NCBI GenBank assembly: GCA_043804895.1 | Contig: JAZDIN010000025.1 | Coordinates: 32,001-96,000, forward strand | DNA: 64,000 bases | Source: Candidatus Altiarchaeota archaeon | GTDB taxonomy: Archaea; Altiarchaeota; Altiarchaeia; IMC4; SCGC-AAA252-I15 | Reading direction: 5' to 3' | Part shown: piece after piece, positions 20,998-53,593 of the stretch | Layout of the letters: each line of letters starts with the position of its first letter | How positions within the stretch are numbered: position 1 is the stretch's first letter | Notes under the pieces: model-generated | What the model was told of the DNA's origin: nothing | Seen by the model: the letters and a program-made list of their open reading frames with translations, nothing else | Database searches by the model: none | Made by a program: the position numbers and the translations under genes

Positions 20998-21032
20998 ACT
21001 AACTACATGTATTGTGTATATAATATAAGCCT

Positions 21033-22901
21033 CTACAGGCTCCCTGGTGGCATTCCATCGATGTACATCCTCTGCCACAGTTCCAGTGTGATGAGGGCCC
21101 ATATCTGGTGCCCCCTCCACAGGTTTTTTGGTTTTCCGAGGAGTGCTTGGACCTTATCGGGCCTAAGTATCCCTCGTCTTCTCACATTTTCCTTTGATAA
21201 TATGTCATGCGCAAACTCGCGCAGTTCGTTGAGCATCCAGTGGTGCATCGGCACCCGGAATCCCTGCTTTTTGCGTGCAAGTATCTCCTTAGGTAGCCTA
21301 TCCCTCATAAGCCTCTTGAGTATGTACTTGTCTGTGGAGCCCCTCAGCTTCATATGGGCTGGAAGCGACATGGTGTATTCGAGGAGTTTGTGGTCTAGGA
21401 GGGGTACGCGGCCCTCTATCGCCCACGCCATGCTAGTCTTATCAAGTTTCATGAGTAGGTCCTCTGGGACCCACGTCTTCAAGTCAACGTATTGTAAGCG
21501 GCTGAGGAACGTCGGCATGTTCCGTGCCCTGAAGCACTGGCGTACTGTGCTGAGGGAGTCGACGCTGGCGTTCGCCTTCTGGAACTCCCCAGTATAATAC
21601 TCACCCCTCTCCTCCTCGTCTAGGACGTGGCCCTGACCCAAGTAGACCTTTTCCTCGTCTGCAGCTGAGATATACCTTAAGTATCTTTTACCTCGTGTGA
21701 ATCCGGGGATATTTTTTATCGCGTATGGTATGACATTATCCTTCATCACAGGGGGCAGGATATTGCGCATGCGGTCGCCTACGTTGAGTAGTTTGTATGT
21801 TCTGTAGCCTGCGAATGCCTCGTCTCCGCCTTCGCCCGTGAGTACTACCGTCACCTTCCTTTTCGCCCGTTCAGACAGGAAATATGTCGGCACAGCCGCA
21901 GGGTCGCCGATGGGTTCATCCAGATGCCATATCACCAATGGAAGGGACTTCAGCGCATGATGGGAGTCGATAATGATCTCATGATGGTCTGTTCTATAGT
22001 GGTCTGCCACAGTCTTCGCGTATTTCACCTCATCAACGTCCTCGTACCCGAATCCTACGCTAAACGTCTTCACAGGTTCAGGCATCATCGACGTCATCAT
22101 GTCAACCATTGTGCTTGAGTCAAGGCCGCCTGAGAGATAGGCGCCGAGTGACACGTCGCTCATCAGGCGCATCCTCACGCAATCCGAAAGTAGCGCATCA
22201 AGTTCTTTAAGGCACTGGCTTTCGCTGACATCATGCAGTTGAGCCTTAAGGTCCCAGTATTGGGTGACGTTGGTCTTGCCACCCTCGCGCACTAGCATGT
22301 GGCCTGGCTGTAGTTTCATCACCCCCTCAAGTGCAGTTTGCATTCCTGGGACATACTGGAGGGTGAGGTAATAGTGGATTGCCTTCTTGTTCAACGCCGG
22401 ATTTAAGCCATCATACTCTAAAAGCGCCTTCACTTCCGAGGCGAACAGGAACGCTCCATCCTTTTCAAAGTAGTAGACTGGTTTTATGCCTAACCTGTCT
22501 CTTGCTAGGACGAGCCTCTTCTTGGACGCATCCCAGAGGGCGATTGCGAACATCCCCCTCAGGTGTTCGACAAAAAGTGGACCATGTTCCTCATACAGGT
22601 GCACGATGACCTCCGTGTCGGTGTTTGTCCTGAACTTGTGGCCTTCAGCCTCGAGTTCTCTCCTCAGTTCAAGGTAGTTGTAAATCTCCCCATTGTATAT
22701 CGTGACCACATCACCTTCCTCGTTGAATATCGGCTGCTTCCCTGTTGAAAGGTCTATGATGGAAAGGCGCAGGTGGCCGAGCATCACGTCTGAATCATGG
22801 TATTCGCCGCAGTCATCTGGGCCCCTATGGTGGACTGTATCCATCATATCCCTGAGCAGTCCCCTGTCCTCAAAACCCATTATCCCCACAATACCACACA
22901 C
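21033..22901 (-). CDS. asnB: Second AsnB-family glutamine amidotransferase
   Basis: GTG start at 22901 gives MCGIVG with the Ntn Cys at position 2; HRGPD, LSGGLDSS and GEGGDE. Confidence 0.93.
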   Translation of the reverse strand: MCGIVGIMGFEDRGLLRDMMDTVHHRGPDDCGEYHDSDVMLGHLRLSIIDLSTGKQPIFNEEGDVVTIYNGEIYNYLELRRELEAEGHKFRTNTDTEVIVHLYEEHGPLFVEHLRGMFAIALWDASKKRLVLARDRLGIKPVYYFEKDGAFLFASEVKALLEYDGLNPALNKKAIHYYLTLQYVPGMQTALEGVMKLQPGHMLVREGGKTNVTQYWDLKAQLHDVSESQCLKELDALLSDCVRMRLMSDVSLGAYLSGGLDSSTMVDMMTSMMPEPVKTFSVGFGYEDVDEVKYAKTVADHYRTDHHEIIIDSHHALKSLPLVIWHLDEPIGDPAAVPTYFLSERAKRKVTVVLTGEGGDEAFAGYRTYKLLNVGDRMRNILPPVMKDNVIPYAIKNIPGFTRGKRYLRYISAADEEKVYLGQGHVLDEEERGEYYTGEFQKANASVDSLSTVRQCFRARNMPTFLSRLQYVDLKTWVPEDLLMKLDKTSMAWAIEGRVPLLDHKLLEYTMSLPAHMKLRGSTDKYILKRLMRDRLPKEILARKKQGFRVPMHHWMLNELREFAHDILSKENVRRRGILRPDKVQALLGKPKNLWRGHQIWALITLELWQRMYIDGMPPGSL

Positions 22902-22903
22902 CG

Positions 22904-24013
22904 TCAATCACCAATCAACTCATCGTATATTCCTTCAAGCTTCGCAGCCTGTTTTTTAATGTTAAACTCCGATTCAACATGCTTCCTCCCCTCCACACCC
23001 ATCTTATCACATAGGTTGGTGTTATCTATAAGCCTGATCATTGCACTGCCAAGGCTCTTAATATCCCTCTCCTCAACCACAATGCCCGTTTTACCCTCCA
23101 ATACAAGCTCTGGTATCCCAGCGTGTCGTGTTGAGACAACTGGCATACCGGTTGCGGCGGCTTCCATAAGCACATTTGGTATCCCCTCCTTCTCTCCATC
23201 CGGTGTGGTGAATGATTGGAGCACGAAGATGTGGGATTTTAACATCTCTTCAATAACCTTATGATGCGGTAAAGCGCCGAACAAATCAACATCGTCTAAG
23301 ACACGGAGCTCCTTAGCCCTCCGTTCAATAACATCCCTGTAGGGGCCTTCGCCGACAATCTTCAGCCGCGTATTAGGGCGGCTCTCATGTACTTGTGCGA
23401 ATGCCTCGACTGCGTCTTGGACGCCCTTGTTTTCCGCCAGTCTTGCCACTGTCAGAAATACAGTCCTATCTGATGGTTGCCTCTTCACGTATTGGAATTC
23501 ATCCAAGTTTATCCCAGAGTGGTGGACCATTACCTTACCCTCAGGGCAGCCCATCCTGACAAGGTCCTTTTTCATGTCATACGAGCGAGCTAGGAAAATG
23601 TCCCCCTCCTTGAATAGCAGGTCGTACATTCCCGGCTTCCTTGACGGGAAAAGTGACGCATCAATGCCCCTGAACGACGTAACAAGCGGGATAATATGCC
23701 TCCTCTTTAGGGAAAGCATTCTCAACCCGGTGGGGCCGTAATGGGCGTGCAAAAGCCTTACATCCTCCCGCTCTATTACCTGTGAGAAGTGCGGGCACCC
23801 TAGGTGAAAATGCAGGTATGCGCCGTTAATGAGATAGCTTATGGGATTCAAGTCCGAAATGCTTCGCAAACCAGCGTAAGGGAAAGACTCCAGGTTCTTT
23901 TTTTGCGCGCAGAACACCAAAACCCTGTAAGATGTGATGCTAGTTATCTCGTTGTATATGAATGTTTCCGTCAGCGGCAGGTACCTGAGCCTCACGTGCG
24001 CTATGGTCTCCAT
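22904..24013 (-). CDS. Glycosyltransferase family 4 (WcaL-like)
   Basis: LPLTETFIYNE, HAHYG and EGIPNVLMEAAATGMP. Confidence 0.9.
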   Translation of the reverse strand: METIAHVRLRYLPLTETFIYNEITSITSYRVLVFCAQKKNLESFPYAGLRSISDLNPISYLINGAYLHFHLGCPHFSQVIEREDVRLLHAHYGPTGLRMLSLKRRHIIPLVTSFRGIDASLFPSRKPGMYDLLFKEGDIFLARSYDMKKDLVRMGCPEGKVMVHHSGINLDEFQYVKRQPSDRTVFLTVARLAENKGVQDAVEAFAQVHESRPNTRLKIVGEGPYRDVIERRAKELRVLDDVDLFGALPHHKVIEEMLKSHIFVLQSFTTPDGEKEGIPNVLMEAAATGMPVVSTRHAGIPELVLEGKTGIVVEERDIKSLGSAMIRLIDNTNLCDKMGVEGRKHVESEFNIKKQAAKLEGIYDELIGD

Positions 24014-24068
24014 CTTGGTTAACTATCCTCCGGATATTTTAAAAGGAGCGACTAAAGACTAAACTGAC

Positions 24069-24845
24069 ATGAAAGTTGTTATACTCTGCGGTGGCCGCGG
24101 AACTCGGCTAAGGGAGGAGACAGAGTACAAGCCAAAGCCCCTGGTTGAGGTAGGCGGCAGGCCCCTACTCTGGCACCTAATGCACATCTATGCGAAATAC
24201 GGGTTTAAAGAGTTTGTTCTGTGCCTCGGGTACAAGGGGAACTTGATCAAGGAGTATTTCCTTAATTACGATGCCATGAACAACGACTTCACAATACACC
24301 TTGGTGACCGGAAGGAGATTGCGGTGCACAGCATGCACCGCGAGCATGACTGGCGTGTAACCCTAGCTGACACCGACGAGGAGTCACTAACTGGCACAAG
24401 GATTAAGAAGATAGAAAAGTACATTGACAGCGACACGTTCATGTTAACATACGGAGATGGACTGGCAGACGTCGATATAAAAAAACTACTTGAATTCCAC
24501 AAATCCCATGGGAAGATCGGGACCATCACTGGAGTGCACCCCTCATCACGCTTCGGTGAGATACAAGCCGAGGGGGGCAGGGTATTGTCCTTCCACGAGA
24601 AACCAAGTTCATTCTCAGGGCTTATAAACGGCGGATTCTTCGTCTTCGATAAAAAGTTCTTCAGGTACCTAGACCTGGAAAAGAATCAAGCCCTAGAGGC
24701 AAAGCCCCTCGTTGAACTATCACGTGAGGGTGAGCTTATGGTCTTCAAGCATGAGGGGTTCTGGCAATGCATGGACACCTACCGGGAGGTCGAGATTCTG
24801 AACAACTTATGGAACTCTGGAAAACCTCCCTGGAAAATCTGGTGA
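24069..24845 (+). CDS. rfbF: Glucose-1-phosphate cytidylyltransferase
   Basis: ILCGGRGTRLREET..KPKP, LTYGDG, INGGFF and FWQCMDT. Confidence 0.93.
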   Translation: MKVVILCGGRGTRLREETEYKPKPLVEVGGRPLLWHLMHIYAKYGFKEFVLCLGYKGNLIKEYFLNYDAMNNDFTIHLGDRKEIAVHSMHREHDWRVTLADTDEESLTGTRIKKIEKYIDSDTFMLTYGDGLADVDIKKLLEFHKSHGKIGTITGVHPSSRFGEIQAEGGRVLSFHEKPSSFSGLINGGFFVFDKKFFRYLDLEKNQALEAKPLVELSREGELMVFKHEGFWQCMDTYREVEILNNLWNSGKPPWKIW

Positions 24846-24898
24846 AATGCCTTTAACTTCTCTTTAAAACCCTTAACTGTTAAATAATTTAAAGTAAA

Positions 24899-25897
24899 AT
24901 GGATGACAGGTTTTGGAGGGACAGAAATGTCTTCGTGACCGGTTGCACTGGCTTCCTCGGGTCGTGGCTTACGAAAGCATTGGTTGATCGAGGGGCTAAT
25001 GTCACCGGACTTATTCGTGACTGGATTCCAAAATCCAACCTGGTACTGACCGGATACAACGAAAAGGTTAGTGTCGTGAGGGGAGCGGTCGAGGATTATC
25101 CACTACTGGAAAGAACGCTGAACGAATATGAAATAGATACAGTATTCCACCTGGCAGCTCAGACCATAGTAACAATAGCTAATAGGGGCCCGTTATCGAC
25201 ATTCGAGACCAACATAAAAGGAAGCTGGAGCCTGCTCGAGGCCAGTAGGAGGGCTCCTCTTGTCAGGCGCATCATATGCGCCTCAAGCGACAAGGCATAC
25301 GGAAACCAGATACGGCTTCCCTACAGCGAGGACACACCTCTTGAGGGCAGGCATCCGTACGACGTCTCCAAGAGTTGCGAAGACCTAATCGCTAGATCAT
25401 ACTTCGAGACCTACGGCCTCCCGGTCTGCGTCACAAGGTGCGGGAACTTCTTTGGCGGCGGGGACTTGAATTTCAACAGGATCGTGCCCGGGACGATACG
25501 TTCTGTAAACTACGGTGAGAGGCCACTGATTCGAAGCGATGGAAAATCCACTAGGGATTACATATACATAGAGGACGCTGTAGAAGCCTATATGCTCTTG
25601 GCTGAGCGGATGGGCGACAAAAAAATCCACGGCGAGGCGTTAAACTTCAGCAACGAGAAGCCGATGACAGTCAAAGGGCTGGTGGAAAGGATAATCAAGA
25701 TTATGGGAAGTGACCTCAGACCGGTAATACTGGACGAGGCATCCAACGAGATACGGCACCAGTACCTTTCTTCAAAAAAGGCGAGGAAAATTCTGAATTG
25801 GAAGCCACACTACGACTTTGAGGCGGGTATGAAAAGGACGATAGAATGGTATGTCGGATTCTTGAACGATGGGGTAGTCATCGGGGAGAAACACTGA
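24899..25897 (+). CDS. CDP-glucose 4,6-dehydratase-like SDR
   Basis: [29 protein letters not shown] and GGGDLNFNR; directly follows rfbF. Confidence 0.85.
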
Positions 25898-25976
25898 TGG
25901 ACGAATGACTGTCCTCGCACGAAGACAACCCCCGGGAAGAATATTAAGGGATAATATACAAGTGTTGTGAAAGAAG

Positions 25977-27197
25977 ATGATTAAAGTTAAAAGGCGGGAG
26001 ACGTGTCGCATCTGTGGTTGCCATGACATGCGTAAGGTAATTAATTTTCCTGAATGCCCCCTAGTTGAGGATTTCAGGACAAAAAAGGATGTGGGTGGTG
26101 AATTCCTCTATCCTCTAACCATTTACGTGTGCGAAAGATGTAAGCAGATACAGACACTACACGATGTGGATGTGAGCGGCTACTATAAGGGTTTCATATA
26201 CTCCGTCGCAAGTTCGCCTTTCGCCAGACAGTTCATGAAGAATTTAGCAGGCTCACTCTTTGAGAGATACAACCTGAAGAAGGGAGCGTCCGTCCTTGAG
26301 ATAGGCAGCGGTGACGGTTTCCAGTTGTCTTGCTTCCAAGACATTGGGGCTAGGGTGTACGGTATAGAACCCTCCAAGCCTCTTGTTGATATAAGCTTGG
26401 AAAGGGGGGTCCCAGTCATACAAGCGCTTTTCTCCAATGATGTCCTTGACAGAATACCCAAAGAACTCTTCCCATTTCAGGTGGTCCTTCTGACCTACAC
26501 ATTCGACCACCTTACTGACCCCTTATCCTTCCTTGTCTCAATAAGAGATTTCATAGACCAGAAGAAGGGTCTTCTGGTACTTGAGGTGCACGATCTTCCG
26601 AAGATAATGGAACGAAGAGAGTACTGCCTTTTCGGTCACGAGCACCCATGCTATTTCAGCGTTGACACAATACGCAACGTCCTTGTTGAGGGTGGGTTCG
26701 AGCTTGTTGACTGCGAACTTCTACCTGAAAGCCAAAGACGCGGGAACTCGTTGCTTGTCGTGGCAAAGCCTGCCGCTGACCCACAAAAAACCCCGAAACA
26801 CCTAATCTATCCCAAATTACAACGACTAGAAGCCTATGATGCGTTCGGGCATCAGGTGGAGAATAGCCTGTACAATTTTAGAAACCAGGTAATCGAAGAT
26901 AAAAAAATAGGCACAACGTTCGCTGGATATGGGGCTGGAGGAAGGGGGGTTCTTACCCTGGCGATGACGGGTCTTAAGTCAGATGATATAGGATACCTAT
27001 GCGACAAGAATGAGAAATTCTACGGGTACTACACTCCCAAGTCACATGTGCCGATAGTGCCGCTTGAACACGCGCTTGAGAACATGGTCGATAAAATGAT
27101 CGTGTTTTCATACGGATACATGAAGGACATATCACAAGACATGTCAGGATTTACAAAAAGCGGGGGCATTCTGATACCCCTGCTGGAGCTACTCTAA
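25977..27197 (+). CDS. NDP-sugar C-methyltransferase-like protein
   Basis: N-terminal CRICG...CERC zinc region, LEIGSGDG, HEH and C-terminal GYGAGGRG. Confidence 0.82.
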   Translation: MIKVKRRETCRICGCHDMRKVINFPECPLVEDFRTKKDVGGEFLYPLTIYVCERCKQIQTLHDVDVSGYYKGFIYSVASSPFARQFMKNLAGSLFERYNLKKGASVLEIGSGDGFQLSCFQDIGARVYGIEPSKPLVDISLERGVPVIQALFSNDVLDRIPKELFPFQVVLLTYTFDHLTDPLSFLVSIRDFIDQKKGLLVLEVHDLPKIMERREYCLFGHEHPCYFSVDTIRNVLVEGGFELVDCELLPESQRRGNSLLVVAKPAADPQKTPKHLIYPKLQRLEAYDAFGHQVENSLYNFRNQVIEDKKIGTTFAGYGAGGRGVLTLAMTGLKSDDIGYLCDKNEKFYGYYTPKSHVPIVPLEHALENMVDKMIVFSYGYMKDISQDMSGFTKSGGILIPLLELL

Positions 27198-27198
27198 C

Positions 27199-28128
27199 AT
27201 GCGTGCTCTGATCAGCGGCGGAACAGGTTTTGTGGGCTCTCATCTGGTTCGCCGACTGGTCGGTGACGGATGGGATGTCTCGATTCTGGTCAGACGGGAA
27301 AGCGATACTTGGAGGATAAAGGATGTCCTGCGTGACGTTGCCGTCGTATATGGGGACCTGAGGAAACTAAGCGACTGCGAAGAGAAGATAAAATCGCTGA
27401 AACCTGAAGCACTCTTCCATCTTGCATGGCATGGCGCGGGCTCTAACAAGGATGCTAACAACATTGGACAGGTGTTCGACAACATCGATGGGAGCCTTAA
27501 GCTTGTGAAGGCTTGCGGTGAAACTGGATGCAGCTGCATGGTTGGGCTAGGTTCGGTCCTTGAGTACGGTAACTACAGCATCCCCGTCAAAGAGGATGGT
27601 ATAGCCACCCCAAAGACGCTATACGGAACAGCCAAATATGCAACAGGAGTTATCGCAGAGCGTTTATGTGCGCAATACGATATGAGATTCTCCTGGCTTA
27701 GGCTATTCTGGTCATACGGCCCAGCTGACATTGAGACCCGTATGATACCCTACGTGATAACGAGACTCCTTAAGGGTGAGACCCCCTCTCTGACTGAGGG
27801 GAGGCAGAAGTGGGACTACATCTATATTGACGACGCTGTGAACGCAGTGATTTCTGCAGCGGAAAATCAGAAGGCAAATGGATTCTTCAATCTCGGCTCT
27901 GGACAGGCTTATACAGTACGTCACGTCGCGGAAAAGGCAAGGGATCTCATTAACCCGAATCTGAAGCTTGGTTTGGGAAAGATACCCTACGCTCCCGGCC
28001 AGATTATGCACCTTGAGGCTGATATAAACTCCCTACGAACCGCGACAGGATGGAGTCCAAAAGTTGAGCTTGCCGATGGTTTGGCATCGACAATCTCATG
28101 GTATAAAAAACATATGGTGCGTTCATGA
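27199..28128 (+). CDS. NAD-dependent NDP-sugar epimerase/reductase
   Basis: GGTGFVG, HLAW and YGTAK (YxxxK). Confidence 0.88.
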   Translation: MRALISGGTGFVGSHLVRRLVGDGWDVSILVRRESDTWRIKDVLRDVAVVYGDLRKLSDCEEKIKSLKPEALFHLAWHGAGSNKDANNIGQVFDNIDGSLKLVKACGETGCSCMVGLGSVLEYGNYSIPVKEDGIATPKTLYGTAKYATGVIAERLCAQYDMRFSWLRLFWSYGPADIETRMIPYVITRLLKGETPSLTEGRQKWDYIYIDDAVNAVISAAENQKANGFFNLGSGQAYTVRHVAEKARDLINPNLKLGLGKIPYAPGQIMHLEADINSLRTATGWSPKVELADGLASTISWYKKHMVRS

Positions 28129-28982
28129 GCCTTAAGAGGAAGTCGTGTGACTCAAAAGCACTAGCCACGAGAGTGCGCGCGCATGCGCTCAACATGACAC
28201 ATAACGCCCGCGCCTCACACATCGGTTCGTCCCTTTCAGTCGCTGACATACTTACGGTACTTTACAGCAGAATACTCCGCATCGACCCGGCCAGACCAGA
28301 CTGGCCCATGCGTGACAGGTTCATACTAAGCAAGGGACATGCTGCCGCAGCACTTTACGCAGTGCTTTCAGAGTCAGGATTCCTTCAGAAAAACTCCCTG
28401 AAGACCTACTGCCAGGATGACTCGGCGCTTGGCGGCCACGCATCAATGAAGGTTTCGGGTGTAGACTTTTCAACTGGTTCACTTGGACACGGTCTTGCGA
28501 TAGGATCTGGGATGGCTCTTGCAGCCAAGCGGGATCGCTGCAGATACAGGGTTTTCGTTCTTTTAAGCGATGGCGAATGTAATGAGGGTTCAATCTGGGA
28601 GGCAGCAATGTTCGCTGCACACCACAGGTTGGATAATCTGACCGCTATTATAGACTATAACAAACTGCAGGCGTTTGGCCGAGTTGAGGATGTACTTGAC
28701 CTTGAGCCTCTCGCTGAGAAATGGAAGTCCTTCGGATGGTCAACCCAAGAGATTGATGGCCACAATCACGTTAAGATAGAAGGCGCTCTGAGTCGCGTTC
28801 CTCTCAAATCAGGTAAACCAAGCTGTATAATAGCGCACACAGTTAAAGGCAAGGGTGTCTCTTTCATGGAAGACCAACTTGACTGGCATTACAAGTCGCC
28901 TGACATAAAACAACTAACCTCAGCACTCATCGAGCTTGGGGTACCCAATAATGATCTCCCACCTTGGGGACAACGAAGATGA
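28125..28982 (+). CDS. Transketolase, N-terminal (TPP-binding) subunit
   Basis: SHIGSSLS, DRFILSKGH, TGSLGHG and SDGECNEG. Confidence 0.93.
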   Translation: MSLKRKSCDSKALATRVRAHALNMTHNARASHIGSSLSVADILTVLYSRILRIDPARPDWPMRDRFILSKGHAAAALYAVLSESGFLQKNSLKTYCQDDSALGGHASMKVSGVDFSTGSLGHGLAIGSGMALAAKRDRCRYRVFVLLSDGECNEGSIWEAAMFAAHHRLDNLTAIIDYNKLQAFGRVEDVLDLEPLAEKWKSFGWSTQEIDGHNHVKIEGALSRVPLKSGKPSCIIAHTVKGKGVSFMEDQLDWHYKSPDIKQLTSALIELGVPNNDLPPWGQRR

Positions 28983-28988
28983 AAAAAC

Positions 28989-30209
28989 ATGAACCAAAAA
29001 CTTAACTCAAAAAAGGCTACAAGAGTGTACATGTGGCAGAATGGGCTTTGCATAACCTACTTGTTGATTTTCAGAAAGTTCCAGGAATTCCTTAAGGCGA
29101 ATGGCTGGGAAATAGTCAACAAACCCGCCGATGCCGAGTGGATAGTGACCGGGGCATGCGGCAGCTTCCTACCAGTGATAGACGACTACCTCAGGCACAT
29201 CGAGTCCTACCTCCGCGGAGGTAAGAAGGTCTTAGTATACGGCTGCCTGCCAAAAATTACTCCGGAAAGATACCATGAGTACGAAAAAAGGGCGAATCTT
29301 CTAATACCTCCGGAAAGGCCAGAGCTTATAGAGGAACTTATCCCAAATGCTAGGGTCAGATGGTCTGACATCCCAAACAATGGAGAGTTCAGGAGAGAAG
29401 ACTACCGGAACTACGACCCCACGAGGAAGTATGTCCTAATACAATACGGTTGTAGCATAGAGTGCACATACTGCCCTCACGTGAAGGGTATAGGCAAGAA
29501 CGTCAGCAGGTCTAAAAAGGAAGTGATAAATGAGGTCAATTCTATGCTAAACAACGGGGCCAAGACCATATTCCTTGAAGGCAGAGACATAGGGTCCTGG
29601 GGTATCGATCTCAAACAGCAAGACTCCTTCCCCAGCATTCTAGAGGAAATACTAACTCTGCCAGGCAACTTCGACGTCTACGTAAACCAATTTGGAGCTA
29701 ACTGGGCAGTACACTACGGGAAAAGGCTATTCGAACTTTTTGAGAACCCGAAGATAAGGGACGTGCACATACCCATTCAGACGACAAGTGAACGGCTGTT
29801 GACGCTCATGGGACGTAACCCAAATGTTAAAAAACTCAGCCCACTCCTTAAGTCTTTGAGGGTGAACAGACCCAACCTCATGCTCAGGACCGACCTGATA
29901 ATAGGTTTCCCGACCGAGACAGAGGAGGAACTCAATGACACCCTAGAGTTCGTAAAGGAACATTTTGATGAGGTCGCATGTCACGGTCTCGAGCTTCACC
30001 CTAACACCAAACTCATGGAGATGAAGCTGCCCTTCTTCGACCAATCCTTAATCGAAGAGCGCGTAGAACGCGCGAGAAAATACCTTGAGGAAAGCGGTGT
30101 GGTGGCCCACCGCGGAGGCCAGGTCTTCAAGACTATGGTCAAGCGTGAGAGGGTGATGAAAAAGAAGAGGGGGAGGACACATCTGTCAAGGGGTGGCATT
30201 AAGAAATGA
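28989..30209 (+). CDS. Methylthiotransferase-like radical SAM protein (MiaB/RimO-like, no TRAM)
   Basis: N-terminal Cys21/Cys57/Cys86 (GLC, GAC, YGC), core CSIECTYC, HIPIQT and TDLIIGFPTETEEE. Confidence 0.78.
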   Translation: MNQKLNSKKATRVYMWQNGLCITYLLIFRKFQEFLKANGWEIVNKPADAEWIVTGACGSFLPVIDDYLRHIESYLRGGKKVLVYGCLPKITPERYHEYEKRANLLIPPERPELIEELIPNARVRWSDIPNNGEFRREDYRNYDPTRKYVLIQYGCSIECTYCPHVKGIGKNVSRSKKEVINEVNSMLNNGAKTIFLEGRDIGSWGIDLKQQDSFPSILEEILTLPGNFDVYVNQFGANWAVHYGKRLFELFENPKIRDVHIPIQTTSERLLTLMGRNPNVKKLSPLLKSLRVNRPNLMLRTDLIIGFPTETEEELNDTLEFVKEHFDEVACHGLELHPNTKLMEMKLPFFDQSLIEERVERARKYLEESGVVAHRGGQVFKTMVKRERVMKKKRGRTHLSRGGIKK

Positions 30210-31120
30210 GGCCCACATTTGCCAACACTCTTTACGACCTAGCTAAACGAGACAAAGGGGTCTACCTACTCACATCGGACGTAGGCTACTCAGTCTTCGA
30301 GAGGTTCATCGACGACCTACCCAAACAATACGTCAACGTCGGCATAGCTGAAGCCAATATGATTGGCATTTCCGCGGGCCTCGCGTCTTCTGGAAAGAAG
30401 GTTTTCGCCTACTCAATGTCGCATTTCCTAACCCTCCGGTGTTACGAGCAGATAAAACTTGACCTATGTTACCCAAAGCTCAACGTCAAGTTAATAGGTT
30501 CAGGAGGCGGTTTGACTTACGGCTCGCAGGGGCCAACTCACCAGTCGAATGAAGACATCTCGATAATGCGTTCCCTACCCAACATGTGCGTCATTTGCCC
30601 AGGAGATCCTATTGAGACAGGGTATGCAGTGAGAGAGGCGTTGAAACGAGGCGGACCTGTCTACATAAGGCTCAGTAAAAAAGATCCGATTGTGCACGCA
30701 TCTGATGACATAGACTTCCGGATTGGTAAGGGCATCATCCTGAATAATGGTTCAGACCTTACACTCATATCTACTGGCAACATGCTAGCTACGGCAAAGG
30801 AAGTGTGCGAGAGGTTTCAAGCCGATGGAAAAAAGGTGTGTCTTGTGAGCATGCACACTATCAAACCTCTTGACATTAGGTTGGTCAAGGAACTTGCTGA
30901 GACAGGCAGACCGATGTTTTCGCTTGAAGAGCACAGCTTAGTGGGTGGATTGGGAGGTGCAATCTCAGAAGTTCTTGCGGAACTAGACTGCAAGGTCCCA
31001 TTCCGGCGGATAGCCCTACCAGATGGTTTCTGCAACGTTATCGGAAGCCAAACCCACCTGCGGAGGAGTTACGGGCTAGACCCGGATAGTGTTTACAGGA
31101 CTATCAGAGATATCCTATAA
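30206..31120 (+). CDS. Transketolase, C-terminal subunit
   Basis: NVGIAEANM, GPTHQ, GPVYIRL and EEHSLVGGLG. Confidence 0.93.
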   Translation: MRPTFANTLYDLAKRDKGVYLLTSDVGYSVFERFIDDLPKQYVNVGIAEANMIGISAGLASSGKKVFAYSMSHFLTLRCYEQIKLDLCYPKLNVKLIGSGGGLTYGSQGPTHQSNEDISIMRSLPNMCVICPGDPIETGYAVREALKRGGPVYIRLSKKDPIVHASDDIDFRIGKGIILNNGSDLTLISTGNMLATAKEVCERFQADGKKVCLVSMHTIKPLDIRLVKELAETGRPMFSLEEHSLVGGLGGAISEVLAELDCKVPFRRIALPDGFCNVIGSQTHLRRSYGLDPDSVYRTIRDIL

Positions 31121-31156: not shown

Positions 31157-31879
31157 ATGCCAGAAAGTGGATTCAAAGGTCCGATATTCTCGATAATCAT
31201 CCCCTCATACAACGAAGAGGAAACATTGCCAATATCGATTCCCGATTTATTAAAGCATCTTGGAGAGGCGGAAATATCAGATTTTGAGCTCTTGATAGTA
31301 GATAATGGCTCCTTTGACAAAACAGGTGACGTAATACGCGAGCTAATGGGAAAAGACAGGAGGATAAGGTCCGTAAGGGTTCCTTTCAACCAGGGGTGGG
31401 GGTTAGGCGTGATGTCAGGGTGCTCTCAGGCGTTGGGCAGGTACGTCGTGTATATGTGCGCGGACCTGCAGGTGCCTCACAAAGCCCTGGTTGAGGTGTG
31501 CGAGAGGATTGCCAGGGAAGACTCTGACAAAGTTATCGTCAAGGTGAATAGGGTTGTTAGGGATGACGGGGTAGCCAGGGGGATATCATCCAACCTCTAC
31601 AACCTTTTTATTAACCTCATGTTCCTTGGGGTTTCACCAGACGTTAACGGCACACCCAAGGCACTTTCCCTGAAGTTGTGGAGGCAGCTTGACGTGAGGA
31701 ACAGGGGTTCGTTTACTGACACTGAGGTCTTGATTAAGGCTAAGAGGGCTAATGCGAGGATTATCGAGATAGAAACAGTTTCAGTTAAGAGGATATGTGG
31801 TTCGTCCACTGTTAGGATATCCCAACTTCCTTTTGAGATGTTTTTTGACGCCATCAAATTCAGGCTAAACATTACCTAG
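31157..31879 (+). CDS. Glycosyltransferase family 2 (DPM1-like)
   Basis: SIIIPSYNEE, VDNGSFDKT and ADLQ. Confidence 0.88.
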   Translation: MPESGFKGPIFSIIIPSYNEEETLPISIPDLLKHLGEAEISDFELLIVDNGSFDKTGDVIRELMGKDRRIRSVRVPFNQGWGLGVMSGCSQALGRYVVYMCADLQVPHKALVEVCERIAREDSDKVIVKVNRVVRDDGVARGISSNLYNLFINLMFLGVSPDVNGTPKALSLKLWRQLDVRNRGSFTDTEVLIKAKRANARIIEIETVSVKRICGSSTVRISQLPFEMFFDAIKFRLNIT

Positions 31880-31926
31880 ATGTCATAGACTGACTTGATG
31901 TCAATGTGATTGGTGTGGGCGTTAAT

Positions 31927-33765
31927 ATGGTAAGGAAAATCAATGTAACGGATCATTGGCTTGTACTGGTAGTATTCCTTTTGTCTATAGTCTACATTAC
32001 GGGATACGATTTCTCACTCAACTCAAATGACCCGAATGAGCAATTACCCCTTATCAAGAGGGTATTGGATAAGGAGTATCTCACCAATGACTGGTATGTA
32101 AACAGCTCTCAGGCATTTTCTATACGGTCCTACTACACATACGTGGTCGCTTTTTTCCCCGAATTCATCGGGCTGGCTAATGTGTACTTCATACTCTACT
32201 TACTGTCCTATTCACTCACAATCTATGCTTCCTATCGCATATCCAAAATGATGCTAAAGGACAACCTTGCAACACTCCTAGTCATGTTCATGGTAATCTT
32301 CGGACCAAATGCTTCCCTTGGCAGCTTCAGACTAGTGGAATGGGAGTTCATACCAAGGTCGCTAGCTAACCCCCTGATACTCTTAGGGATATATTTCATC
32401 CTCAATGGTAGTTTGCCCGTTTCCGGATTCCTATTCGGCCTTGCAAGCATATTCCACCCGTCTATGGGCATACTAATGGGTGTGGTGTTCTTGACATACC
32501 TACTCTTTAATGCGCGAAGTATCGGGCTTCGTGAAGTCCTAAAATCATCGGCATGTTTTATAGTGGTCAGCCTCTTCGTCATAATCCCAACAATACTCCT
32601 GGGCTCATCGGTTTCAGACCCGGAGGCCATTGCCATATTTACTAAGGTGGTTAGTCCTCACATCTTCTTCCCCACATACTTCGGGTTAAATCAGTACCTA
32701 ACGTTCATGTCACTTGCAGCTTTGGTCGCACTCGCAATAAAATATGGATCTAAGCTTGATAATACTAAGGCCGCATTTTCTTTGATTGCACTTATTTTAA
32801 TGCTTGCATTAACTGGCGCATTTTTCACGGAAATCGTTCCATTGCCTTGGATTTACATATTCAACCTCTTCAGGCCAATGCAGTTCGCCTACCTATTTGG
32901 ATTCATATTTGTCTCTGGTTTTCTGGCGCATGAAATTAATCGCTCGACAAGTCCGGTCAATCGGATAATCCCCCTCGCCGTTGCATCTTCATTTGCAGCA
33001 TCTTATGTGATGTCTGCCACCACGATACTCTACCTTGTGTATGTTAAGTACCTCAGGAACAGGATAGAATCATTAGCCCCGAAAAAAGCATTGGTTGGAA
33101 TAGTAGCTGTGTTAGTTCTAGCTACTGCATCCATTACCATATACCTGTTCCATCTAGAAGGGTCGTCCTTATATTTAAATTTGTCAAAGACATTGCGTCT
33201 TTTGGGCATATTTGTCTTTTTAGCATCTGCCTCTTCAAAGGTTATCGTATCGTACTCTAAACGTGTAATGGATGGGTACATAGAACATTTAATATCGATA
33301 TTCATCGCCATGTTAGTACTATTCTCCGTATACCAGTCTGGTGGTCTAAGTACTGAAAGAATGCCGCGCGATCCAATGACAGCCAACCTTTATCAATGGG
33401 TAAAGGTCAATACACCCAAGGATGCGGTTTTTATAATACCCCCACACCTATATACATTCCGCATTGGAGCTTCTAGAGCGGTTTTCGCCGATTCATTTTC
33501 AAGGCCTTTCACTGATGAAGGTATTATCGACTGGAGCAGCAGAATGAAGCAGTTTGCAAAAAACTTCGACACGAGGTTAGGCTATGACCTCTCCAATGAC
33601 TTGAAAGCTGGTTACAACTCAACAAACACCTTAGAATTTGAGCGTATTGGAAAAACGTACGGTGCGTCCTACGTACTTACTGAAAAACCGAAAGTGCTCG
33701 AAATTGATCCGGTATTTGAGAATGAAAAATACGTACTCTACAATCTAAGCCAATATTCAAACTAA
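31927..33765 (+). CDS. Polytopic membrane protein, probable GT-C-fold glycan transferase
   Basis: More than 12 TMs, early loop with NDWY, C-terminal soluble WVKVNTPKDAVFIIPP...FR...RA domain. AT-rich. Confidence 0.55.
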   Translation: MVRKINVTDHWLVLVVFLLSIVYITGYDFSLNSNDPNEQLPLIKRVLDKEYLTNDWYVNSSQAFSIRSYYTYVVAFFPEFIGLANVYFILYLLSYSLTIYASYRISKMMLKDNLATLLVMFMVIFGPNASLGSFRLVEWEFIPRSLANPLILLGIYFILNGSLPVSGFLFGLASIFHPSMGILMGVVFLTYLLFNARSIGLREVLKSSACFIVVSLFVIIPTILLGSSVSDPEAIAIFTKVVSPHIFFPTYFGLNQYLTFMSLAALVALAIKYGSKLDNTKAAFSLIALILMLALTGAFFTEIVPLPWIYIFNLFRPMQFAYLFGFIFVSGFLAHEINRSTSPVNRIIPLAVASSFAASYVMSATTILYLVYVKYLRNRIESLAPKKALVGIVAVLVLATASITIYLFHLEGSSLYLNLSKTLRLLGIFVFLASASSKVIVSYSKRVMDGYIEHLISIFIAMLVLFSVYQSGGLSTERMPRDPMTANLYQWVKVNTPKDAVFIIPPHLYTFRIGASRAVFADSFSRPFTDEGIIDWSSRMKQFAKNFDTRLGYDLSNDLKAGYNSTNTLEFERIGKTYGASYVLTEKPKVLEIDPVFENEKYVLYNLSQYSN

Positions 33766-35538
33766 TCTGTAGACGCTGAATCTCTCGTTCTCCCAGACGA
33801 GTTCACCAACTCCTCCCAATTTTTCCTTGTCGACATCCCTCAGACTACCATCCGACTGGGTGAAAATATAATAACTGACGTTCTGTGCCCTGGCAGTCTC
33901 AACTATCCTGTCCCACCCCTCATACGGCGGTATAACCGCCAGTAGTCCTGTGTAGAAGTTGACGCGTTGACCGTCCTCTGACATTATGATACTCCCTTCA
34001 GGCACTGTCTCTCCAATCATATTCATCGCCTTAAGGTCAGGCCTTTCAGATATTCTTACGCCTGAGAGTAATGCAGTCTGAGCGACCATAGAAAGTACAA
34101 TAACCGTTAAGAGTACACCCCTCCTCCCCACAATATATGCTGCTGCATATGCTAAAAATATTGGGGTTAAGGGGCTTAGGAAGTCCACGCTAACTCCGTC
34201 CGACTTCGGGTAGCCAGTCCACAATGGGCCCACAAAGCTGGAGAATGCTAGAACAAAAAACAGTAATGTGCCACTCACATGCCTTAGGTTGGATAGTATG
34301 TAAAGGATGGCGGCCGTGAAGGCCAATAAGCTAACTAGGTTCATAACAGAATTGCTCATAGTCCAAATAAACCCATACTCCTGCATCTTGTTCGGTGGCG
34401 GGACGTACGTTGTCACCATATTTATCAGCCGATACATCACGGCCTTCAATACCCCGAGAACACCGCCCCCCAACCTTTCAAGATAGGATGTTGGTGTTGG
34501 GGGGGTTAGTGACTGGTATTCATCCCACTTCGTCATGAACGGCACATACCTTGCCGTCGTATACAACGGATTGCCAAACAGGGTATAGTTTCTGACAAAC
34601 CACGGTGTCAACACAACAATGAAAATCAAAGCAGCCATAATATTCTCCCTCGCGAATATCTGATACTTATTCCTTATGGCCTGATAAACGACCACTGCAA
34701 TTATAAACCATACTGCCGTATAGTGCGTCAGATAAGCGAATGCGGCAGATAGTGCCGCATACGCACTGAAACCCCTACCCCTCACTGTGAAATAAACCAT
34801 CATCGTTACGAAAAAAGAAACCATTACTCTCGGTTCAAGCTCTATAGAACGCGAGATAAGGAAAAAATTCACAGAAACCAGCAATCCACTTATCCACCCT
34901 ACCTCATGATTGAACAGCCTAGTTGCCAGAAGATAAATACCTAATACCAGGAAAACCCCGAAGAATACATTAATTGAGACTGCTGAGGCGTAGTCTACTC
35001 CATTAAACACCATGCCAAGAGCGTGCAGAAAATCCTGAAGTGGTGGCCTATAATTGCCAGGAAACGGGAATCTAGTGTATGGTGTCCAGTAATTGTCTAT
35101 AACATCAGTTGTGAACCATTCAGCGGTGAGGAAGCTTCTAGCATAAGAATAGTGGGCGTATGAGTCGCCGACAACGGGATTGGGGTTTAGTTCAAACAAA
35201 GCTACTCTCAAGGCCAATGCCAATACCAGTACCACAATAAACTTATCTAATCCACTGCTAACTCCTGCCGCCTCCCGACGTTTGAGCCCCTCTGGCCTCC
35301 ACTTTCTTGCGGACAGATACACTACTACTGTGGCAAATGTAACCGCTCCCAACAGTGCATCGAACCCAAGCTGGACCCCAATGGCGTGAAGTACAAGGGC
35401 GCATGAACCGTACAAGAGGGTCGAAGCCAAGACTGCAGCACAGAACCGTTCGACAGCGTCAAGCCTCCTGTCAAGGCCAGACAGAACGTAACCGGGGGCA
35501 TAAAAGAACACCACTGTCCTTAGAAATTCTATTATCAT
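33757..35538 (-). CDS. GT-C glycosyltransferase (ArnT/PMT-like)
   Basis: GDSYAH..YARS, YRPPL, AYLTHY and PWFVRNYTLFGNP; many TMs. Confidence 0.75.
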   Translation of the reverse strand: MIIEFLRTVVFFYAPGYVLSGLDRRLDAVERFCAAVLASTLLYGSCALVLHAIGVQLGFDALLGAVTFATVVVYLSARKWRPEGLKRREAAGVSSGLDKFIVVLVLALALRVALFELNPNPVVGDSYAHYSYARSFLTAEWFTTDVIDNYWTPYTRFPFPGNYRPPLQDFLHALGMVFNGVDYASAVSINVFFGVFLVLGIYLLATRLFNHEVGWISGLLVSVNFFLISRSIELEPRVMVSFFVTMMVYFTVRGRGFSAYAALSAAFAYLTHYTAVWFIIAVVVYQAIRNKYQIFARENIMAALIFIVVLTPWFVRNYTLFGNPLYTTARYVPFMTKWDEYQSLTPPTPTSYLERLGGGVLGVLKAVMYRLINMVTTYVPPPNKMQEYGFIWTMSNSVMNLVSLLAFTAAILYILSNLRHVSGTLLFFVLAFSSFVGPLWTGYPKSDGVSVDFLSPLTPIFLAYAAAYIVGRRGVLLTVIVLSMVAQTALLSGVRISERPDLKAMNMIGETVPEGSIIMSEDGQRVNFYTGLLAVIPPYEGWDRIVETARAQNVSYYIFTQSDGSLRDVDKEKLGGVGELVWENERFSVYRLV

Positions 35539-35618
35539 TGGTCTGCTAAGACTATTGTTAAGTAATATATTTATCCTCAATCCAACGGTTTTTAGCATAC
35601 ACTGACATAGCATAAACC

Positions 35619-36398
35619 ATGGGTTCACCCGCAGGTAACGGCTGCCTAGTTGACCGAATCTTGAAGAAATGCGGGGCATTGGGCATTGTGGACTTGTGGG
35701 CTTCCACAGACAAGAAGTACATAGACCATCACGAGAATTTCCTGAACCTCACAGAGGAGGGGTACTCCGATGACCTCATAAAACATATGCGTGATGTCAG
35801 CGGACTTATTGGTGTGGACATAGGCTCCGGTGGCGGCGTGGTTGCAAATAGGCTGGCATCTTTGGGCGCGTCAGTCAATGTGATGGACATATCATTAAAC
35901 GCTGTGAGGCATGCTACGTCATCTGGTCGCGTTCTTGGGGTTCAGGCTAATGTAGAGCATATGCCCTACAAGGATGATGCGTTCGATTTCTGTGTCTGCA
36001 CGGATGTTGTGGAGCATGTGGTTGAATATCATCAGCTAGTTAGTGAGATACAAAGGGTATTAAAACGAAGTGGTGTGGCTTATCTAACAGTACCAAACGC
36101 GTACAGTTGCAAGAACTTACTTCTTGATCTCATATTTCCTATCCTCACAGGAGTATCTCGAAAGGTCACTGGCCACAAGCCTCAACTACCCTCCCGGGGC
36201 CATATAAACCTCTTCAGCAGGAAGAGCTTTGCAACCTTTTTGTCCGAGAGTGGTTTCATCATAGAGGCTGTTGAGGGCAGTAAGGTCAAGGATATCTCCA
36301 GGTACCGTCTTGTGGTGAATCCTCTATCAACTCTAGCTGGCTTTATCATACCCTCGATGGTGGTTGATGAGCTCATGTTCATGGTAACACCCGAATGA
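35619..36398 (+). CDS. Class I SAM-dependent methyltransferase
   Basis: DIGSGGG, DVVEHV, LTVPN and GHINLF. Start position uncertain. Confidence 0.85.
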   Translation: MGSPAGNGCLVDRILKKCGALGIVDLWASTDKKYIDHHENFLNLTEEGYSDDLIKHMRDVSGLIGVDIGSGGGVVANRLASLGASVNVMDISLNAVRHATSSGRVLGVQANVEHMPYKDDAFDFCVCTDVVEHVVEYHQLVSEIQRVLKRSGVAYLTVPNAYSCKNLLLDLIFPILTGVSRKVTGHKPQLPSRGHINLFSRKSFATFLSESGFIIEAVEGSKVKDISRYRLVVNPLSTLAGFIIPSMVVDELMFMVTPE

Positions 36399-41379: not shown

Positions 41380-41401
41380 CTGATTGAAATGGGGTGTTGG
41401 T

Positions 41402-53537: not shown

Positions 53538-53593
53538 TTTTATGGTTAATGCATATAATTAGTGGAATATATTCGGTTTTGAGGTGGTTTCAG

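Follow-up and report, generated by a model that had tools for sequence, protein, structure and literature searches.

The 64,000-nucleotide stretch analysed here (the window) holds a seven-ORF cluster at positions 24069–31120, all on the plus strand, encoding in order RfbF, SDR1, a C-methyltransferase, SDR2, TK-N, a radical SAM protein and TK-C. This gene content and the tight packing of the last five genes, both proposed in an earlier note on this DNA, were confirmed by ORF coordinates and profile matches; of the four junctions within this group of five, the first is a 1 nt gap and the third a 6 nt gap, and the second and fourth are overlaps of 4 nt. Inside the 55 nt divergent intergenic region 5' of the cluster, an A/T-rich TATA-like box (ATTTTAAAAG, 24036..24045, plus strand) was read directly in the sequence some 25–30 nt before the rfbF ATG and constitutes a putative promoter element.

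The first gene, rfbF (24069..24845), encodes a glucose-1-phosphate cytidylyltransferase whose product is CDP-glucose (PF00483; TIGR02623 333.9 bits, above the cut-off of 300.25). SDR1 (24899..25897) has TIGR02622 as its top NCBIfam match at 217.6 bits, and because this lies under the cut-off of 278.45 the protein is aptly termed CDP-glucose 4,6-dehydratase-like; homologs with 56–58% identity come after rfbF at loci L001, L005 and L022. The third product (25977..27197) carries the complete domain set of an NDP-hexose C-methyltransferase of the TylC3/TcaB9 type, namely a zinc ribbon, a class I methyltransferase and a C-terminal C-methyltransferase domain, with matches to PF08421 (Methyltransf_13, 50.7 bits), PF13489 (Methyltransf_23, 60.1 bits) and PF08484 (Methyltransf_14, 72.6 bits) that all exceed their cut-offs. 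SDR2 (27199..28128) is an NAD-dependent epimerase/reductase of the Epimerase family (PF01370, 148 bits), probably a ketoreductase, and in L003 a homolog with 46% identity immediately precedes the radical SAM gene. The N-terminal, TPP-binding half of a transketolase (TK-N, 28125..28982; PF00456, 155 bits) and the C-terminal half, with its pyrimidine-binding and C-terminal domains (TK-C, 30206..31120; PF02779, 118 bits; PF02780, 84 bits), together complete the transketolase domain set and flank the radical SAM gene (28989..30209). Among the 52 window ORFs scanned there was no DegT-family match that would indicate RfbH, the E1 3-dehydrase needed for 3,6-dideoxy sugars.

The cluster had been taken to end at 31120, which now seems too early. 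A GT2 of the type that acts on polyprenyl phosphate, small and soluble (31157..31879, plus strand; PF00535, 85 bits; no hydrophobic segment), and a polytopic membrane protein with DUF6798 (31906..33765, plus strand; PF20604, 57 bits; 13 hydrophobic segments) follow after gaps of 36 and 26 nt, so that the operon probably extends further. The GT2 gives ArnC/AglJ-like matches (NF007986, 55 bits; TIGR04182, 30 bits), every one of them under its cut-off, and the DUF6798 protein is a candidate GT-C-type transferase. Convergent to them lies a second polytopic membrane protein, of the PMT_2 (GT-C) family (33757..35679, minus strand; PF13231, 38 bits; 12 hydrophobic segments).

Profiles, alignment, an AF2 model and a tree identify the 406-residue radical SAM protein, P0001, as an enzyme of the methylthiotransferase (MTTase) fold that has no TRAM domain. 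Like MiaB, RimO, MtaB and e-MtaB, it combines a three-cysteine UPF0004 domain at the N-terminus with a radical SAM core bearing CxxxCxxC. The core scores 53 bits against PF04055, above the cut-off of 29.5, while the UPF0004-type domain is matched by PF00919 in 33/33 relatives at E <= 1; P0001 itself reaches 22.1 bits, where the gathering score is 27. Both the auxiliary triad (Cys21, Cys57, Cys86) and the core cysteines (Cys155, Cys159, Cys162) lie at the positions first assigned to them, and all six are invariant in the 33 aligned relatives; Cys57 and Cys86 align with N-terminal-domain cysteines of RimO (4jc0). P0001 is predicted to carry two clusters. The absence of a C-terminal TRAM, also suspected earlier, holds for the whole alignment, where none of the 33 relatives matches PF01938 or PF18693 at E <= 1; the TIGR00089 match of P0001 reaches no further than position 361 of the 429 in the profile, and beyond residue 346 the AF2 model (pLDDT 92.5, pTM 0.90) shows a helix, a short strand and a helix in place of TRAM.

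The top structural matches of this model are MtaB, MiaB and RimO (Z 30.0–31.6, rmsd 3.0–4.0 Å over 354–365 residues; Foldseek TM 0.70–0.75), which share with P0001 the 3D fold of the two catalytic domains, and after the methylthiotransferases come MgmA (Z 22.4) and AprD4 (Z 21.3). A cobalamin-dependent (class B) radical SAM enzyme was considered and rejected, since the B12-binding domain PF02310 has no match in P0001 or any of the 33 relatives and TsrM, CysS, OxsB and Mmp10 reach only Z 16–19. P0001 retains the motifs universal in MTTases (GC, S173, D207, PxQ, LxxMxR and GFPxET), but residues conserved in the canonical enzymes are substituted at N24, N55/T56, R168, E193, Q199, R231 and H260, and the methyl-to-sulfide step may therefore be lost. 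P0001 further differs from MiaB, RimO, MtaB and e-MtaB in a family-specific insertion near residues 134–143 (F134-R135..D138-Y139), in a CPH motif that follows the radical SAM cysteines, and in the HxGGQ motif (H374, G376, Q378) of its C-terminal helix-strand-helix, which ends in a basic tail. The C-terminus is rich in lysine and arginine in P0001 and its aligned relatives, and could bind nucleic acid or a membrane instead of a nucleotide sugar. P0001 has no hydrophobic segment.

The relatives of P0001 form a separate, small and sharply bounded group outside all four canonical methylthiotransferase classes. Scores run from 208 to 632 bits for 68 proteins, none of them with TRAM, and then fall to 156 bits. 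P0001 itself stays below the curated cut-offs of the family model and of the equivalog models (TIGR00089, 176.4 against 251; TIGR01578, 148.3 against 314.7; TIGR01125, 145.2 against 357; TIGR01579, 137.4 against 357; TIGR01574, 113.8 against 355), and no curated model covers the family. In an unrooted tree (quick IQ-TREE, LG+G4), 33 family members make up a single split with SH-aLRT 100 and a stem of 0.57, and 28 canonical rows from the four MTTase classes group apart with support of 99, which places P0001 outside the tRNA and S12 methylthiotransferase clades. Other TRAM-less MTTase-like proteins (P0070–P0075, P0101, P0103, P0106 and P0113, some from Bathyarchaeia) match only TIGR00089, with the match ending at about profile positions 357–381, and share 23–32% identity with P0001; their place in the tree is between the canonical classes and the family, from which they stay separate. 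The source genome carries a separate canonical e-MtaB (TIGR01578, 429.9 bits, above the cut-off of 314.7). No ortholog of P0001 was found in 40 related archaeal genomes, where the best match (117.5 bits, 27% identity) is at e-MtaB level. Databases name the relatives MiaB or tRNA methylthiotransferase automatically, and our literature search on the family returned nothing.

The homologs show a strong association with CDP-sugar clusters, and P0001 lies in such an operon and not beside translation genes. Of 23 full-length loci, all from different species, 16 have an rfbF gene (at least 41% identity) within 10 kb, and ORF clustering of these 23 loci plus the window gave a C-methyltransferase at 21/24 and rfbF at 18/24. 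The CDP-sugar context recurs in Planctomycetota, Omnitrophota, Thermodesulfobacteriota, Alteromonadales, Cyanobacteriota and Methanomicrobia; at L006 and L007 it is scant or absent within 10 kb. A TylF- or CmcI-type methyltransferase occurs within 1500 nt of the radical SAM gene at 19 of the 24 loci, the window not among them, with the metagenome locus L050 as one further case beyond the 24, and P0045 is a single fusion protein of CmcI, UPF0004 and radical SAM. The gene order of L003 is that of the window minus the transketolase halves, and represents a minimal five-gene module. Cultured carriers of the family are Bowmanella denitrificans (L020) and Fluctibacter corallii (L017). No sulfur-handling genes were seen near the radical SAM gene in the window or the inspected family loci.

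The arrangement that had first drawn attention, a radical SAM gene between split transketolase subunits, is real in the window but proved to be local: split transketolase occurs at two of the 24 loci (the window and L004), and the nesting in the window only. The conserved partners of the family are the C-methyltransferase and the TylF/CmcI-type methyltransferase, not the split transketolase. A separate housekeeping transketolase is present in the genome of L004 and in the source genome, where a second split transketolase adjoins ribulose-phosphate 3-epimerase on contig C24; the best NCBIfam match of TK-C is the DXS model TIGR00204 (180.5 bits). At three substrate-binding columns the cluster TK-C proteins (window and L004) have Gly, Gln/Ala and Lys, where the housekeeping split transketolase and one full-length transketolase have His, Asp and Arg; these columns we take to be the sugar-phosphate-binding H461, D469 and R520 of E. 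coli TktA. The window transketolase is a cluster-specific second paralog with altered substrate-binding positions.

L001, L002 and L005 have RfbH and an acetolactate-synthase-like TPP enzyme where the window has the split transketolase (RfbH in L002, 698 bits, above the cut-off of 423; homologs in L001 and L005), a layout of the yersiniose type. The yersiniose pathway consists of DdhA/RfbF, DdhB, DdhC/RfbH, YerE and YerF. Like it, the window starts from CDP-glucose and has a thiamine-diphosphate enzyme placed to branch a 4-keto sugar by two carbons; it differs in having no RfbH, in a split transketolase-type rather than ALS-type TPP enzyme, and in the extra C-methyltransferase and radical SAM enzyme. 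The two-carbon branch put forward in the earlier note thus gains indirect support from the sister loci and from the altered second paralog.

With relatives in the CDP-sugar clusters of many microbes, P0001 is probably a sugar-modifying enzyme, and the earlier suggestion that the substrate of this MTTase-like enzyme belongs to a sugar pathway and is not tRNA is well supported by the separate clade and the CDP-sugar association. We propose that the family comprises two-cluster radical SAM enzymes of CDP-hexose pathways, which act on a CDP-6-deoxyhexose and most likely form a C–S bond, a reading to which we assign a probability of roughly 0.45. In the route we envisage, RfbF would supply CDP-glucose and SDR1 CDP-4-keto-6-deoxyglucose, the C-methyltransferase would methylate a carbon adjacent to the keto group, the dedicated split transketolase would branch the sugar by two carbons at the C-4 carbonyl, in the manner of YerE in the yersiniose pathway, and SDR2 would reduce a keto group. 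The radical SAM enzyme could then take a hydrogen off an unactivated carbon, the likeliest being that of a methyl group (C-6 or the C-methyl branch), to which a sulfur-based group (methylthio or thiol) would pass from the auxiliary [4Fe-4S] cluster. The GT2 may put the finished sugar on polyprenyl phosphate for transfer to a surface glycan by the GT-C membrane enzyme. What the data establish are the identities of the genes, the fold, the conservation of the cysteines, the separation of the clade and the association with CDP-sugar genes, whereas the substrate, the sequence of steps and the formation of a C–S bond are inferred. For sulfur transfer the prediction comes from the fold together with the auxiliary-cluster cysteines that P0001 retains. 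By chemical reasoning, a methylthio group placed at a carbinol carbon would yield an unstable hemithioketal, leaving few plausible sites for methylthiolation. More tentatively, these may be the first MTTase-type radical SAM enzymes of small molecules, installing methylthio or thiol at an unactivated carbon in a C-methylated 6-deoxyhexose linked to CDP, with a TylF/CmcI-type methyltransferase as obligate partner in most lineages.

The same class of substrate, a CDP-6-deoxyhexose or branched derivative, might instead undergo sulfur-free chemistry through the 5'-deoxyadenosyl radical, such as dehydration or deoxygenation, epimerisation, rearrangement or C–C bond formation, with the N-terminal cluster serving substrate binding or electron transfer. 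We regard this as less likely, yet it has several observations on its side, among them the substitution of many residues found only in canonical MTTases and the lack of nearby sulfur-handling genes. The methyltransferase-rich clusters and the TylF/CmcI pairing would likewise fit non-sulfur tailoring, or thiolation with separate S-methylation. AprD4 (PDB 6fd2), a radical SAM enzyme that serves aminoglycoside biosynthesis as a 1,2-diol dehydratase, tailors a sugar and has a similar two-domain layout (residues 8–370, 338 residues aligned); at 12% identity, however, its structural match is clearly weaker than that of the MTTases (Z 21 against about 31), and to our knowledge its N-terminal domain lacks a three-cysteine auxiliary cluster. 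The three auxiliary cysteines are invariant in P0001 and its relatives, and the only role we know for such cysteines in an MTTase fold, established for MiaB and RimO, is to carry the transferred sulfur. Deoxygenation by the radical SAM enzyme could make up for the missing RfbH in the window and L003, but since L001, L002 and L005 have both enzymes, the radical SAM enzyme does not simply stand in for RfbH.

We think it unlikely that the enzyme works at a later stage, with a sugar on polyprenyl phosphate, an assembled glycan or a glycoprotein as its substrate in place of a soluble CDP-sugar. The basic, amphipathic-looking C-terminal helix (residues 380–401) could rest on a membrane or polymer, L002 and L003, like the window, have a GT2 immediately 3' of the gene, and canonical members are generally known to act on macromolecules; the CmcI-type fusion and the close association with enzymes that tailor nucleotide sugars nevertheless point to the nucleotide-sugar stage, and the lack of hydrophobic segments also speaks against late action. 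It is highly improbable that P0001 modifies tRNA or a ribosomal protein as an ordinary methylthiotransferase, placed in a sugar operon by chance with its TRAM lost or diverged: relatives are automatically named MiaB and the basic C-terminus could in principle bind RNA, but a full-length e-MtaB that exceeds its cut-off is already encoded in the genome, the family separates from the four canonical classes with 100% support, its absence from the 40 related genomes is unlike the pattern of a housekeeping modification enzyme, and the CDP-sugar context recurs across bacterial and archaeal lineages.

The characterised methylthiotransferases known to us act on tRNA or ribosomal protein S12, and we know of no report of a methylthio 6-deoxyhexose in a prokaryotic glycan. 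In PMC10702137 archaeal MTTases are treated as e-MtaB tRNA enzymes, and the enzyme making methylthio-F430 is described as still unknown. Our analysis corrects the automatic annotation of the family as MiaB or tRNA methylthiotransferase, and the small, sharply bounded family, the five-gene module of L003 and the cultured carriers make the prediction directly testable. If a TRAM-less branch does work in nucleotide-sugar pathways, MTTase chemistry would reach small molecules and a new kind of sugar is predicted. Should the enzymes indeed attach sulfur to CDP-linked sugars, sulfur-bearing deoxysugars would be an unrecognised surface-glycan decoration in scattered bacteria and a few archaea.

The seven-gene CDP-sugar layout proposed in the earlier note was recovered in full as plus-strand ORFs at 24069–31120, with gene identities resting on Pfam and NCBIfam profile matches. 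The operon opens with rfbF (24069–24845; TIGR02623, 333.9 bits, above cut-off), followed by a CDP-glucose 4,6-dehydratase-like SDR gene (SDR1, 24899–25897; best match TIGR02622, 217.6 bits, below the cut-off of 278.45), a three-domain NDP-hexose C-methyltransferase (25977–27197; PF08421, PF13489 and PF08484), a second SDR gene (SDR2, 27199–28128), a transketolase N-half (28125–28982; PF00456), the radical SAM protein P0001 (28989–30209) and the transketolase C-half (30206–31120; PF02779 and PF02780). Of the four junctions among the last five genes, the first and third are gaps (1 and 6 nt) and the second and fourth are 4 nt overlaps. Upstream, a TATA-like ATTTTAAAAG lies ~25–30 nt before the rfbF ATG, inside a 55 nt divergent region, and is a putative promoter element. 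The operon probably continues past 31120: a small, soluble GT2 (31157–31879) directly follows the transketolase C-half, and after it comes a 13-segment DUF6798 membrane protein (31906–33765). A PMT_2 (GT-C) protein with 12 segments is encoded convergently at 33757–35679.

The translation of P0001 carries the cysteines attributed to it, namely Cys21, Cys57, Cys86 and Cys155/159/162, and in an alignment of 33 family sequences all six are invariant together with H164, giving CxxxCxxCPH; near-invariance extends to H374, G376 and Q378, close to the C-terminus. Among NCBIfam models P0001 best matches TIGR00089, that of the MiaB/RimO superfamily, with 176.4 bits (cut-off 251), and it falls far under the cut-offs of all four NCBIfam equivalog models (MiaB, RimO, MtaB and e-MtaB). 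PF00919 (UPF0004) scores 22.1 bits in P0001, below its gathering score, and is matched at E ≤ 1 by 33 of 33 aligned relatives. Since the TIGR00089 match stops at profile position 361 of 429, the TRAM part of the profile is unmatched, and the reported absence of TRAM is borne out by the relatives, as neither TRAM nor TRAM_2 matches any of the 33. A reading of P0001 as a B12-dependent methylase was discarded because it has no B12-binding domain.

AlphaFold2, given the 33-sequence alignment, yields a confident model of P0001 (pLDDT 92.5, pTM 0.90), which after residue 346 has a helix (352–368), a strand of three residues and a second, long helix (380–401), with no β-barrel. MtaB, MiaB and RimO rank top among its structural matches in Foldseek and VIA-align (TM 0.70–0.75, Z 30.0–31.6, over 354–365 residues), followed at much lower Z by MgmA (22.4), AprD4 (21.3) and cobalamin-dependent methylases (16–19). 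By sequence, the closest relative with a solved structure is RimO (4jc0; E 2.1e-31), whose N-terminal-domain cysteines align with C57 and C86 of P0001. In a column comparison the family keeps the scaffold universal to methylthiotransferases (MTTases), comprising both cysteine sets, G85-C86, S173, D207, P262-x-Q264, L271-x-x-M274-x-R276 and G306-F-P308-x-E310. In contrast, positions conserved only in the canonical enzymes are replaced (N24, N55, T56, R168, E193, Q199, R231, H260 and R337), and the family has an insertion with F134-R135..D138-Y139 that canonical MTTases lack.

Database searches and phylogeny set these proteins apart. A word-indexed search with P0001 gave 138 proteins at E ≤ 0.001 among 3359 candidates; P0002–P0069 (n = 68) score 208–632 bits and measure 373–440 aa, plus one fusion of 647 aa, and none of the 68 carries TRAM. 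The next scores are 156 and 140 bits, with TRAM-bearing proteins appearing only at ≤110 bits. Exhaustive search of 50%-identity representatives returned 12470 matches at E ≤ 0.001, of which just ~15 exceed 176 bits, above a continuum of MTTase-like proteins at 125–163 bits. No fused family form longer than 712 aa was seen at E ≤ 1e-30, which is weak evidence; the long MTTase-like proteins in the exhaustive search (P0138, P0151 and P0169) are tandem MTTase-like modules outside the family and are uninformative about function. The earlier note had set a phylogeny against MiaB, RimO and MtaB as a test, and we calculated an unrooted maximum-likelihood tree of 71 rows (quick search, LG+G4), with outgroups labelled by NCBIfam (11 e-MtaB, 2 MtaB, 12 MiaB, 3 RimO and 10 other TRAM-less proteins). 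The 33 family members form one split (SH-aLRT 100, stem 0.57) outside the canonical clades, the 28 canonical rows group by themselves (support 99), and the other TRAM-less proteins lie in between. These ten (P0070–P0075, P0101, P0103, P0106 and P0113) represent other TRAM-less MTTase-like groups, some in Bathyarchaeia; the giant P0151 and P0169 contain two or three modules of MTTase type, and one of them has a MurB_C domain.

The proposed association with sugar clusters recurs among homologs. A scan of one genome per species yielded 28 loci, 23 with a full-length relative at 30–49% identity, distributed over Planctomycetota, Omnitrophota, Thermodesulfobacteriota, Alteromonadales, Rhodospirillales, Cyanobacteriota, Oligoflexia and one Methanomicrobia MAG. 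When the window proteins were used as tblastn queries, 16 of the 23 showed an rfbF homolog within 10 kb at 41% identity or more; two have 27–29% matches alone and five have none, two of these five being on short or cut contigs. Clustered rough ORF calls over the 23 loci and the window (n = 24) place a C-methyltransferase in 21, an SDR in 19, rfbF in 18, a TylF-like methyltransferase in 13, and an RmlC-like 3,5-epimerase and a CmcI/rhamnosyl-O-methyltransferase-like gene (PF04989, 232 bits) in 12 each. The loci represent different species, yet some share an order or phylum, and the counts are therefore a pattern rather than a statistical test. In 19/24 loci the radical SAM gene has a TylF- or CmcI-type gene no more than 1500 nt away, mostly within 90 nt, the window, L003, L004, L007 and L010 having none at that distance; in the fusion P0045 a CmcI domain (50–250) precedes UPF0004 (263–343) and the radical SAM core (395–563). 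The minimal module, L003, reads rfbF, SDR, C-methyltransferase, SDR, radical SAM, GT2, that is, the window operon minus the transketolase halves. Scanned for closer relatives, metagenomes gave a single 3.4 kb contig (L050, 46% identity), which has an adjacent upstream TylF-like gene and no transketolase. Sugar-nucleotide context is little or absent in L006 and L007. A SPASM-domain radical SAM gene (cluster c9) occurs in 4/24 loci (L008, 11160–12125; L009; L014; L023), adjoining the MTTase-like gene in the first three. In the delta-proteobacterial L027, family fragments at 9780–10306 (query residues 9–50 and 247–348), between a C-methyltransferase and an SDR, are probably what is left of a gene after an internal deletion.

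The split transketolase does not share this recurrence. It stands beside a family gene only in the window and L004 (2/24 loci), which rules it out as a conserved partner. As the halves are adjacent in L004 and no other locus has a split transketolase, the nesting of the radical SAM gene between them, prominent in the earlier note, is peculiar to the window. The genome of the window has a second split transketolase on contig C24 (L043, 5797–8243), directly after a ribulose-phosphate 3-epimerase and with a nucleotidyltransferase, two SDRs and a gene of the UDP-glucose dehydrogenase family upstream, and this is likely the housekeeping pentose-phosphate copy; a transaldolase lies in the window itself (53510–54250). 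Apart from the copy in the cluster, the genome of L004 likewise encodes a full-length transketolase (441.8 bits). By alignment, housekeeping transketolases retain His in THDS, Asp in GxDG and Arg in TRQ, positions occupied by Gly, Gln/Ala and Lys in both cluster enzymes; we take these to be the counterparts of H461, D469 and R520 of E. coli TktA, which bind the sugar phosphate and the C2 hydroxyl. Profile scores for the window C-half slightly favour DXS over transketolase (180.5 vs 166.4 bits). The closest named relatives, in Planctomycetota (L001, L002 and L005), have no transketolase at their loci. Placed between their dehydratase and C-methyltransferase are RfbH (NF011936; 698 bits, above the cut-off of 423) and a TPP enzyme resembling acetolactate synthase (TIGR00118; 461 bits, below the cut-off of 538), an arrangement like that of the yersiniose pathway with its DdhC and YerE. 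Because two unrelated TPP enzymes occupy the same slot, the suggested addition of a two-carbon branch to a 4-keto sugar by the transketolase gains support, although the step is optional for the family.

The P0001 family therefore combines an MTTase fold and two cysteine triads with the absence of TRAM in a clade of its own, and an ordinary tRNA or protein methylthiotransferase is hardly credible as its function. It is embedded in CDP-6-deoxyhexose tailoring clusters, beside sugar methyltransferases and once fused to one, and the substrate of P0001 would be a CDP-linked, C-methylated 6-deoxyhexose. The auxiliary cluster is a sulfur carrier in this fold, as established for MiaB and RimO; since its ligands are invariant in the family, we consider C–S bond formation on the CDP-sugar the most likely reaction, at a probability of roughly 45%. 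Some other radical chemistry on the same class of substrate is less likely.

The GT2 and the GT-C-type membrane proteins encoded downstream suggest that the sugar reaches a surface acceptor via a polyprenyl-phosphate sugar; that P0001 acts on a later, lipid- or polymer-linked substrate is quite improbable. C–S bond formation would give a stable product only at a carbon other than a carbinol carbon, which makes the methyl group at C-6 or the C-methyl branch the most plausible target. The frequency of the TylF/CmcI partner makes a division of labour conceivable, in which the radical SAM enzyme may thiolate and the partner then S-methylate.

P0001 has no ortholog in any of 40 related genomes, of which 4 share the genus, 16 the family and 20 the order of the window genome, and the gene is therefore accessory. 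The best match there (117.5 bits, 27% identity) is at the level of canonical e-MtaB; the window genome's own e-MtaB, encoded elsewhere (429.9 bits, above 314.7) and included among the 11 e-MtaB outgroups, scores 93 bits against P0001. The nearest named relatives are bacterial and P0001 nests among bacterial sequences in the tree, which suggests transfer into the archaeon, although the tree is unrooted and the two nearest neighbours of P0001 carry no taxon.

The operon belongs to a single archaeal glycosylation island of ~45 kb (8425–53537), with an initiating transferase of the GT4 family (PF00953), nine or more GT1/GT2 genes, several SDRs, methyltransferases, two AsnB-like amidotransferases (16715–18610 and 21033–22907), a GHMP kinase and an NTP-transferase/HAD fusion. 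Four further radical SAM genes (39336–40400, 41384–42799 and 43575–45014 on the plus strand; 47841–49226 on the minus strand), three with a B12-binding domain (PF02310 and PF04055), sit among GT2, SDR and methyltransferase genes, which suggests that surface sugars or lipids are further tailored by radical, possibly C-methylating, enzymes. A class I methyltransferase (19936–21120, minus strand) bears an N-terminal Trm112-like zinc-ribbon (PF03966; NF038101, 57 bits, below the cut-off of 77), an unusual fusion of a methyltransferase to its usual activator partner. A PD-(D/E)XK/Cas4-like nuclease gene (6145–6924, plus strand) stands alone upstream of the island. Three matches speak for the archaeal origin of the DNA, namely an RFC small subunit (Rep_fac_C, 62934–63872), a Trm112_arch match below its cut-off and the canonical e-MtaB-type MTTase encoded elsewhere in the genome.

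No curated NCBIfam model captures the family, whose members are named MiaB or tRNA methylthiotransferase in databases, and in the open-access literature (Creative Commons PMC and bioRxiv) we found no report on it, nor on any radical SAM enzyme from clusters of the CDP-sugar or yersiniose type. In PMC10702137, archaeal MTTases are assigned to the tRNA-modifying e-MtaB class, and the enzyme for methylthio-F430 is reported as unknown. For the family of P0001, the fold and the probable chemistry are known, and what is new is the domain architecture and the proposed class of substrate.
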